DNA of 837 nucleotides from Escherichia coli (GTDB taxonomy: Bacteria > Pseudomonadota > Gammaproteobacteria > Enterobacterales > Enterobacteriaceae): NCBI RefSeq assembly GCF_003334335.1, contig NZ_QOWQ01000148.1; one strand, given 5' to 3'. Each line of letters starts with the position of its first letter. Within the stretch, counting starts at the first letter, position 1. The notes under the pieces are model-generated. The model had not been told where the DNA came from, did no database searches, and saw only the letters and a list, made by a program, of their open reading frames with translations. Of the stretch, positions 1 through 837 are shown in pieces. The translations under genes and the position numbers were made by a program.

Positions 1-381
1 CTGAACGCCGGTGATACGGCCACGGATACCACGGTAAATGGCGGACTGTTCACCGCCAGGGGCGGCACACTGGCGGGCACCACCACGCTGAATAACGGCG
101 CCATACTTACCCTTTCCGGGAAGACGGTGAACAACGATACCCTGACCATCCGTGAAGGCGATGCACTCCTGCAGGGAGGCTCTCTCACCGGTAACGGCAG
201 CGTGGAAAAATCAGGAAGTGGCACACTCACTGTCAGCAACACCACACTCACCCAGAAAGCCGTCAACCTGAATGAAGGCACGCTGACGCTGAACGACAGT
301 ACCGTCACCACGGATGTCATTGCTCAGCGCGGTACAGCCCTGAAGCTGACCGGCAGCACTGTGCTGAACGGTGCCATTGAC
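1..381 (+). other. flu: C-terminal rungs of the passenger-domain (alpha43) beta-helix
   Basis: Repeated short beta-strand-like motifs with alternating hydrophobic residues (xLxLxx, TLTV, TLTL) separated by Gly/Asn turns. The in-frame hexanucleotide ctgaac (Leu-Asn) recurs five times, at nt 1, 289, 364, 538 and 646; the first four are followed by g, and the last two lie beyond this sub-feature. Domain assignment follows the established Ag43 architecture. Confidence 0.7.
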
Positions 382-837
382 CCCACGAATGTCACTCTCG
401 CCTCCGGTGCCACCTGGAATATCCCTGATAACGCCACGGTGCAGTCGGTGGTGGATGACCTCAGCCATGCCGGACAGATTCATTTCACCTCCACCCGCAC
501 AGGGAAGTTCGTACCGGCAACCCTGAAAGTGAAAAACCTGAACGGGCAGAATGGCACCATCAGCCTGCGTGTACGCCCGGATATGGCACAGAACAATGCT
601 GACAGACTGGTCATTGACGGTGGCAGGGCAACCGGAAAAACCATCCTGAACCTGGTGAACGCCGGCAACAGTGCGTCGGGGCTGGCGACCAGCGGTAAGG
701 GTATTCAGGTGGTGGAAGCCATTAACGGTGCCACCACGGAGGAAGGGGCCTTTGTCCAGGGGAATAAGCTGCAGGCCGGTGCCTTTAACTACTCCCTCAA
801 CCGGGACAGTGATGAGAGCTGGTATCTGCGCAGTGAA
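1..837 (+). CDS. flu: Internal fragment (5' and 3' ends outside the window) of a self-associating autotransporter adhesin of the Antigen 43 family; covers the C-terminal passenger beta-helix, the alpha/beta junction and the autochaperone region
   Basis: Frame 1 is open across all 279 codons, whereas the other frames are interrupted. The composition is rich in Thr/Gly/Asn/Leu/Ser/Ala with short repeated motifs typical of a beta-helical passenger domain (TLAGTTTLNNGAILTLSG, TLTVSNTTLTQKAVNLNEGTLTLNDSTV). The C-terminal stretch HFTSTRTGKFVPATLKVKNLNGQNGTISLRVRPDMAQNNADRLVIDGGRATGKTILNLVNAGNSASGLATSGKGIQVVEAINGATTEEGAFVQGN.LQAGAFNYSLNRDSDESWYLRSE matches my recollection of E. coli K-12 Flu (Ag43) around residues 425-703. 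Identity is from memory, not from a search. Confidence 0.88.
   Translation, partial: MNAGDTATDTTVNGGLFTARGGTLAGTTTLNNGAILTLSGKTVNNDTLTIREGDALLQGGSLTGNGSVEKSGSGTLTVSNTTLTQKAVNLNEGTLTLNDSTVTTDVIAQRGTALKLTGSTVLNGAIDPTNVTLASGATWNIPDNATVQSVVDDLSHAGQIHFTSTRTGKFVPATLKVKNLNGQNGTISLRVRPDMAQNNADRLVIDGGRATGKTILNLVNAGNSASGLATSGKGIQVVEAINGATTEEGAFVQGNKLQAGAFNYSLNRDSDESWYLRSE
379..384 (+). other. flu: Asp-Pro dipeptide (GAC CCC), candidate alpha43/beta43 processing site
   Basis: Codons 127-128 of the window encode D-P within ...VLNGAID|PTNVTLASGATWNIPDN.... Ag43 is reported to be processed between Asp551 and Pro552, and the window position is consistent with that numbering if window codon 1 is about residue 425. 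Exact residue numbers are from memory. Confidence 0.5.
382..837 (+). other. flu: N-terminal part of beta43: autochaperone/junction region preceding the outer-membrane beta-barrel translocator
   Basis: This is the sequence downstream of the Asp-Pro site and before the expected beta-barrel. It is less regular than the upstream rungs and contains charged segments (RVRPDMAQNNADRLVIDGG, NRDSDESWYLRSE), consistent with the autochaperone segment found in AIDA-I-type autotransporters. The barrel itself would lie beyond the 3' end of the window. Confidence 0.6.

Follow-up and report, generated by a model that had tools for sequence, protein, structure and literature searches.

The single Asp-Pro dipeptide of an Escherichia coli agn43 fragment coincides with the published cleavage site of antigen 43

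The 837-nt stretch of DNA analysed here (referred to as the window in the rest of the text) codes for an internal piece of antigen 43 (Ag43), and its Asp-Pro dipeptide corresponds to a self-cleavage site of this protein that has already been published and characterised by experiment. Ag43, a type Va self-associating autotransporter adhesin, very probably cuts itself at Asp551-Pro552, thereby generating alpha43 (residues 53-551) and beta43 (residues 552-1039). The original prediction that the dipeptide marks the alpha43/beta43 cleavage junction is supported by alignment to the K-12 protein, by the end of the 4KH3 crystal construct and by the literature, and the sequence predicts the processing boundary of this allele between nt 381 and 382. 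For the window, the Asp-Pro call has value as annotation only; the stretch takes in the C-terminal end of alpha43, the rung bearing the cleaved bond and the autochaperone (AC) domain.

Identity of the window and position of the dipeptide

The window is a single stop-free open reading frame of 279 codons in frame +1. Megablast comparison with complete E. coli genomes gave matches in 2,417 of 5,426, and nearly all matched genes carry the PGAP annotation "agn43: autotransporter adhesin Ag43". The window is 100% identical in 12 other of these genomes and 99.4% identical in K-12 strains, from which it differs by 5 nt and one amino acid (278/279 aa identical); this substitution, K256 in the window compared to R in K-12, sits in the AC domain, and nothing else of substance differs. 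In K-12 substr. AG100, the agn43 (flu) coding sequence extends from 1729 to 4848 of locus L001 and the window matches 3001-3837. Codon 1 of the window therefore corresponds to residue 425 and D127-P128 to D551-P552, and the window as a whole covers residues 425-703 of K-12 Ag43. The best NCBIfam match was NF033177 (Ag43/Cah) with 254.5 bits, a score reached by a 279-aa fragment against a whole-protein equivalog whose cut-off is 1200 bits. The K-12 protein is 1039 aa long, begins with MKRHLNTCYRLVWNH and terminates with NVTF. An extended signal peptide and a 12-stranded beta-barrel translocator are found in the matched K-12 gene outside the 837-nt window, the barrel and the alpha-helical linker being located downstream of it. 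Within the window, a match to Pertactin (PF03212) at aa 157-277 (E 3.4e-12) overlaps the AC_1 domain.

Features of the 837-nt window and the evidence on which each assignment is based
Feature	Position (nt)	Strand	Basis
agn43/flu internal fragment, Ag43 residues 425-703	1..837	+	Genome matches, NF033177, K-12 comparison
Last 127 residues of alpha43	1..381	+	100% identity to 4kh3_A residues 377-503; superposition 0.7 Å
Conserved junction motif LNGAIDPTNVTLASGATWN, aa 122-140	364..420	+	Family alignments
Scissile Asp-Pro, codons GAC CCC, D127-P128 = D551-P552	379..384	+	Sequence, coordinates, published experiments
First 152 residues of beta43 (PTNVT start): about two beta-helix rungs, then the autochaperone domain	382..837	+	Pfam, model, literature
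AC_1 autochaperone domain, Pfam PF18883, aa 149-266	445..798	+	E 3.5e-19

The hexanucleotide GACCCC at nt 379-384 codes for D127-P128 in the context ...TGSTVLNGAID/PTNVTLASGATWN... (the slash marks the bond). The earlier statement that this is the sole Asp-Pro of the window was borne out over all 279 codons, as was the presence of two pairs in the reversed Pro-Asp order, which we found at aa 142-143 (IPDN) and aa 193-194 (RPDM). In the translated K-12 protein, the motif AIDPTNV places D at position 551 and P at position 552, and this is the only DP of 1039 residues; the proposed alignment of D127-P128 with the published D551-P552 is therefore an exact fit in K-12 coordinates. By composition alone the dipeptide is statistically unremarkable, as 15 Asp and 4 Pro give an expectation of 0.215 DP in the window and at least one DP arises in 20% of shuffles. 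Since the dipeptide taken alone is compatible with chance, the argument rests on alignment and conservation.

The signal at nt 379-384 is purely protein-coding, and features at the RNA or DNA level were rejected: an Rfam search of the window gave no matches, and a search for repeats in the window revealed no inverted repeats and a single, weak direct repeat of 25 nt. Antisense and out-of-frame ORFs of the window (32-90 aa) were without support.

Published cleavage data and structural setting of the site

The Ag43 passenger is cleaved between amino acids 551 and 552 (PMC10058404), and the chain limits of UniProt P39180, as quoted in bioRxiv 10.1101/2020.05.13.093500, are 53-551 and 552-1039. 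The key cleavage experiments come from a preprint (bioRxiv 10.1101/2025.04.08.647479) and were carried out on Ag43a, the allele of UPEC CFT073 (PDB 4KH3), whose sequence around the site is identical to that of the window. The junction AIDPTNVT is common to the window, K-12 Ag43 (UniProt P39180, D551-P552) and Ag43a, which is identical to the window over 127 alpha43 residues and in which the junction is reported as D552/P553, a numbering one above that of K-12 (bioRxiv 10.1101/2025.04.08.647479). Upon denaturation in urea and refolding in detergent, Ag43a cleaved itself in vitro in a folding-dependent, autocatalytic manner, and its alpha and beta fragments co-purified after cleavage. Edman sequencing of the ~55 kDa beta43 fragment read P553TNVT, in agreement with the PTNV start that had been expected for beta43. 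Mutation of the Asp, also suggested beforehand as an experimental test, abolished cleavage: the D552A variant reached the surface, yet was neither cleaved nor released by heat (bioRxiv 10.1101/2025.04.08.647479). This work on Ag43a showed that Ag43 cleavage is autocatalytic, depends on folding, requires the Asp and leaves a Pro N-terminus.

The alpha43 crystal construct 4kh3_A is 100% identical to aa 1-127 of the window, and the last residue of its chain is the one that aligns with D127, indicating that the crystallographers cut their construct at the Asp-Pro bond. An AlphaFold2 model of the window, built from a 20-sequence alignment with a mean pLDDT of 93.9, superimposes on 4KH3 with an rmsd of 0.7 Å over the 127 N-terminal residues, while structural comparison matched its C-terminal part to the AC regions of Ag43 from UTI89 and EDL933 and of IcsA. 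In this model, an unbroken right-handed beta-helix runs through the DP into the AC domain, with I126-D127 forming a two-residue strand or bridge, P128-T129 the following turn, and residues 130-133 the next strand. Judging from the model, cleavage would thus be a nick in a stacked solenoid, approximately 20 residues upstream of AC_1, and not at the boundary between passenger and barrel. A cut within a continuous beta-helix would explain why alpha43 is held on the cell, stacked non-covalently on the beta43 stub, and why 60 °C is needed for its release, which is classically obtained by heating to that temperature (bioRxiv 10.1101/2025.04.08.647479).

Two elements of the original prediction stand only in part. 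Beta43 had been described as membrane-embedded, but its first ~150 residues, all of which are in the window, make up extracellular beta-helix rungs and AC_1. Likewise, the DP is a boundary for processing but not a structural domain limit, as the nick falls inside a continuous beta-helix.

Conservation of the Asp-Pro pair among autotransporters

A HMMER scan of 1.84 billion representatives clustered at 50% identity yielded 871 relatives. We examined the best 150 of them, realigned together with earlier database hits; 124 representatives with less than 60% identity span the site. AIDPTNV is kept by all close alleles (91-100% identity, among database proteins clustered at 90%). Further away, at 45-60% identity, 16 of the 17 stretches that were aligned retain DP, and homologues at 44-57% identity, including proteins of Pantoea ananatis, have IDPTDV; one such homologue is encoded on a plasmid of Pantoea sp. 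At-9b by a gene that adjoins an autotransporter heptosyltransferase gene. Among the 124 representatives (drawn from the best 150 of 871 and the earlier hits), 71 carry D together with P at this pair of columns, compared to 6 with D only, 3 with P only and 44 with neither, a strong coupling of the two residues (P = 2.6e-23, Fisher test). Of the AIDA/Ag43/ShdA/MisL-like autotransporter representatives that we analysed, over half therefore have DP. Moreover, the aligned regions contain 105 DP dipeptides in total, 71 of which fall at this column, the background DP rate being 0.36% per position. The consensus of the DP class reads LTG.IDPTDV.ID..S.WNMTGNS, and W139 of the junction motif is 93% conserved.

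The distance from the DP to the C-terminus ranges from 461 to 579 residues (median 483.5) in 48 complete distant DP proteins whose total length varies from 503 to 2819 aa, and is 488 residues in Ag43. All five DP-bearing proteins tested have autotransporter barrel or Ag43/AIDA/ShdA/MisL-like signatures, and one distant DP-bearing protein originates from Burkholderia sp. F1. The tight coupling between D and P, together with the fixed distance to the C-terminus, argues that the Asp-Pro bond itself is under selection. In these sequences, a conserved module of about 480 residues, comprising beta-helix rungs, AC domain, linker and barrel, appears to have the DP as its N-terminal border.

The short Ag43/Cah alleles of UTI89 and EDL933 (PDB 7KO9 and 7KOH) share the same AC domain, with 55-61% identity over aa 175-279 of the window, but lack a beta-helix stretch of ~100 residues that includes the DP (...LNGDVVSTG----DIVNAGEIRF...). 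The processing site has been said to vary "among Ag43 variants", and the sites of the short type are stated to be unknown (PMC8993888). AIDA-I is a related self-associating autotransporter with autocatalytic processing whose passenger is also kept non-covalently on the cell (bioRxiv 10.1101/2025.04.08.647479). A plasmid copy of AIDA-I (1287 aa) contains no DP anywhere in its sequence. Its processing site, which we take to be Ser846/Ala847 in KES/AGNT, aligns by MAFFT approximately 40 residues downstream of D127 of the window, where the AC domain begins. Asp878 and Glu897 were reportedly implicated in AIDA-I junction autoprocessing by Charbonneau et al. in 2009. The Asp of TDRLVV in AIDA-I, presumably Asp878, aligns with D201 of the window, a residue with 99% conservation in the family, whereas the second acidic residue (in VNEG) aligns by MAFFT with an Ala in Ag43. 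Given that AIDA-I is devoid of DP and that the sites of the two proteins fall at different alignment positions, we rejected AIDA-I as a model for the Ag43 site. The misalignment indicates that self-processing takes place at non-homologous positions in these two proteins, and the chemistry of cleavage is probably different too. DP is lacking in 44 of the 124 distant homologues, in the short Ag43 alleles and in AIDA-I, which implies that it is not needed for secretion or folding in the family.

We tentatively propose that DP could be the signature of a self-nicking junction module (LTG-x-I-D-P-x-D-V-x-I-D-x-x-S-x-W-N) that is widespread and located about 480 residues from the C-terminus behind a passenger of any length, although we consider this to be somewhat less than an even chance. 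The recurrence of Asp-Pro across the family is the sole element of this analysis that might be new, and we regard it as a lead and not as a finding. Our literature search, which was thin on subscription journals, found nothing linking autotransporters with Asp-Pro cleavage beyond Ag43.

Proposed mechanism and alternative explanations

Asp-Pro is the peptide bond most labile to acid and heat, and within FrpC's self-processing module (SPM) the fold twists the Asp-Pro amide such that the Asp carboxyl attacks its own carbonyl, the Pro is expelled and the Asp ends up as a cyclic anhydride (PMC7078468). From this precedent we infer, by analogy, that Ag43 may use the same anhydride chemistry; this chemistry is not discussed in the preprint on Ag43a (bioRxiv 10.1101/2025.04.08.647479), in which the words "anhydride" and "proline" are absent. 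The barrel would insert first and the passenger would emerge in the C-to-N direction, the AC domain folding before the beta-helix stacks onto it. Vectorial folding that locks the I-D-P-T rung onto the AC-templated helix would act as the trigger. The side-chain carboxyl of the Asp would then attack its own main-chain carbonyl, the basic secondary amine of the proline would depart as the new N-terminus, and hydrolysis of the Asp anhydride would leave Asp551 as the C-terminus of alpha43. Alpha43 would remain non-covalently stacked on the beta43 stub until freed by mild heat (60 °C).

The FrpC/ApxIVA module, a Ca2+-dependent "clip-and-link" system, resembles Ag43 in that folding triggers the autocatalytic cut of one Asp-Pro bond at neutral pH in a secreted surface protein of Gram-negative bacteria (PMC7078468), but the likeness is mechanistic only, as the two share no kinship of sequence or fold. 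Of the Pfam families, only AC_1 and Pertactin were matched by the window, and NCBIfam likewise gave autotransporter families alone; neither database revealed a domain of the FrpC-type SPM (~177 residues) after the DP, where the window encodes beta-helix and AC_1. We know of no report of a Ca2+ requirement or of isopeptide cross-linking in Ag43. The GDPH sites of VWD domains (mucins, FCGBP, RGM) likewise undergo autocatalytic Asp-Pro cleavage after which the fragments stay associated in one folded domain (PMC10880436); however, their fold is eukaryotic and their motif includes a His, whereas Ag43 presents AIDPTN in a beta-helix. Autotransporters of the SPATE type (EspP, Hbp, Pet) also release their passenger autocatalytically, but by Asn cyclisation at an Asn-Asn bond in the barrel lumen, at the linker helix, which frees the whole passenger including its AC domain. 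In contrast, the Ag43 cut is extracellular and leaves the passenger attached; it occurs at Asp-Pro, 488 residues from the C-terminus and upstream of the AC domain. Cleavage inside the barrel, as in SPATEs, was thus rejected for the window site, which is an Asp-Pro upstream of the AC domain and not an Asn-Asn in the barrel.

Self-cleavage has to be weighed against three other explanations, all of which we judge to be very unlikely. The first is that an external protease of the envelope, either OmpT-like or an otherwise unidentified outer-membrane or periplasmic enzyme, cuts at the DP and that the dipeptide serves as its recognition element. A 2023 paper credits "an unidentified protease" (PMC10058404), Ag43a with truncated barrel loops is indeed cut by OmpT within its unfolded AC domain (bioRxiv 10.1101/2025.04.08.647479), and the loss of cleavage upon the D-to-A change is also compatible with the loss of a recognition site, so that this mutation alone does not separate recognition from self-cleavage. 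However, the product of OmpT is a distinct fragment of ~66 kDa resulting from a cut further downstream, and refolded Ag43a is cleaved in detergent at the same bond, leaving PTNVT, without any other protein (bioRxiv 10.1101/2025.04.08.647479). Furthermore, diverse proteins with DP at a fixed distance from their C-terminus, including one from Burkholderia, would each need a matching protease.

A second explanation, which seems just as improbable as an external enzyme, is that an aspartyl-protease-like motif in alpha43 (LLADSGAAVSGT, K-12 residues 387-398, upstream of the window) cuts in cis or in trans, the DP being only its substrate. The alpha domain was described as cleaved "by an internal protease motif" (bioRxiv 10.1101/2020.05.13.093500), residues 387-398 of K-12 Ag43 do match PROSITE PS00141, which is matched by 0.9% of shuffled sequences, and the self-cleaving delta1-206 construct still contains the motif (bioRxiv 10.1101/2025.04.08.647479). 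Nevertheless, among 31 distant DP-bearing proteins of full length, just 2 are matched by PS00141 at all; a Pantoea homologue has DP without the motif, homologue P0023 has DP without DSG, and the short Ag43 alleles have ADSG without DP. The motif also seems to be placed in an ordinary beta-helix rung of 4KH3 and not in a pepsin-like fold. We therefore rejected it as the cause of cleavage: the pattern match is real, but it does not co-occur with DP in the homologues.

Least probable of all is that DP is conserved as a structural turn of the beta-helix and that cleavage is a non-physiological chemical hydrolysis during heating or acid handling: although no peptide bond is more labile to acid and heat than Asp-Pro (PMC7078468) and alpha43 is classically prepared at 60 °C, the fragments are present on cells before heat release and co-purify, and the products build up during refolding at a rate that varies with the barrel loops and hence with folding (bioRxiv 10.1101/2025.04.08.647479). 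The co-variation of D and P, neither being substituted independently of the other, is consistent with selection on the bond, and the turn does not need DP since 44 of 124 relatives do without it.

For Ag43 itself, the self-cleavage site serves in the design of alpha43 crystallisation constructs and of surface-display fusions, and an Asp-to-Ala change at the DP gives a non-releasable adhesin. At the scale of the family, an Asp-Pro at a fixed distance from the C-terminus could permit the prediction of self-processing from sequence, which goes beyond the present finding. If the junction module proposed above is real, the DP and non-DP classes would represent two processing states that have been repeatedly interconverted, and many uncharacterised autotransporters could be predictable from their sequence as self-cleaved yet retained at the cell surface.

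Conservation of the Asp-Pro junction across autotransporters

At the level of sequence, conservation of the motif LTG.IDPTDV.ID..S.WN, Asp-Pro included, reaches well past Ag43. Asp-Pro was found in 71 of 124 autotransporter representatives below 60% identity, drawn from the best 150 of 871 relatives together with earlier database matches, and across these 124 representatives D and P were tightly coupled at the corresponding column pair (Fisher P = 2.6×10−23). In the 48 complete distant Asp-Pro-bearing proteins, which range from 503 to 2819 aa, the distance from Asp-Pro to the C-terminus was 461-579 residues (median 483.5). 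No report of autotransporter Asp-Pro cleavage outside Ag43 was found in the literature searched, which covers few subscription journals.

Coordinates of the features compared with the window (aa, window residues; A1, alignment including short Ag43/Cah alleles)
Feature	Location	Proteins, replicons or remarks
LTG.IDPTDV.ID..S.WN motif around Asp-Pro	window 364-420 (aa 122-140)	homologues P0070-P0210
D201 in ADRLVIDGG, autochaperone domain	window 601-603	
K256, autochaperone domain	window 766-768	
LLADSGAAVSGT, PROSITE PS00141 aspartyl-protease active-site pattern match	K-12 Ag43 residues 387-398 (L001, K-12 agn43 locus)	upstream of window
Beta-helix gap in short Ag43/Cah alleles	A1 columns ~318-428	P0042, P0043, P0047, P0050, P0051; PDB 7KO9, 7KOH
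IS421-split agn43	L002 371-4848	E. coli G1/2 (NZ_CP060083.1); likewise strains G6/7 and G8
AIDA-I gene	L003 1994-5857	plasmid pRHB27-C21_3; compared with aa 127 and ~167
1409-aa AIDA-repeat autotransporter, IDPTDV at residue 919	L004 1-5324	Pantoea sp. At-9b plasmid pPAT9B03

Ag43 alleles and the reported cleavage site

The cleavage site is numbered 551/552 in K-12 and 552/553 in Ag43a (bioRxiv 10.1101/2025.04.08.647479). The text of PMC10058404 places the cut "between the AC1 and translocator" and assigns it to "an unidentified protease", whereas its Figure 1 legend places it between residues 551 and 552; as 551/552 lies upstream of AC1, text and legend disagree. The PS00141 match, a pattern found in only 0.9% of shuffled sequences, is probably the origin of the literature's "internal protease motif" statement; among homologues, the PS00141 motif does not accompany Asp-Pro.

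Approximately 100 beta-helix residues, including the entire Asp-Pro rung, are missing from the short Ag43/Cah alleles of the UTI89/EDL933 type, whose processing site is stated to be unknown (PMC8993888). The window itself differs from K-12 Ag43 by a single amino acid, K256 in place of R, the remaining four nucleotide differences being synonymous. In 3 of the 12 genomes carrying a 100% identical window, IS421 has inserted into agn43 and split it into two parts, both annotated as pseudogenes, and the cleavage site in these strains falls within a dead gene. Ag43-identical segments also occur inside P0016 and P0060, which are listed under the names "TA system toxin CbtA family protein" and "antirestriction protein"; both probably reflect mis-calling or fusion of ORFs in a CP4-44-type island in which agn43 adjoins yeeR/yeeS.

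Comparison with AIDA-I and a Pantoea autotransporter

Asp-Pro does not occur anywhere in the AIDA-I protein encoded by pRHB27-C21_3. The Ser|Ala autoprocessing site of AIDA-I aligns ~40 residues downstream of the Ag43 Asp-Pro site, so the positions at which these two closely related adhesins cleave themselves are not homologous. Downstream of Asp-Pro, D201, which is 99% conserved among 123 distant homologues, corresponds in the alignment to the Asp in the TDRLVV stretch of AIDA-I, presumably Asp878, a residue reportedly necessary for AIDA-I autoprocessing.

Directly upstream of the Pantoea sp. At-9b autotransporter gene lies a gene for an autotransporter strand-loop-strand O-heptosyltransferase, the same pairing as in aah-aidA. 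With IDPTDV and this adjoining heptosyltransferase gene, the Pantoea sp. At-9b autotransporter joins an AIDA-like glycosylation context to an Ag43-type Asp-Pro junction.
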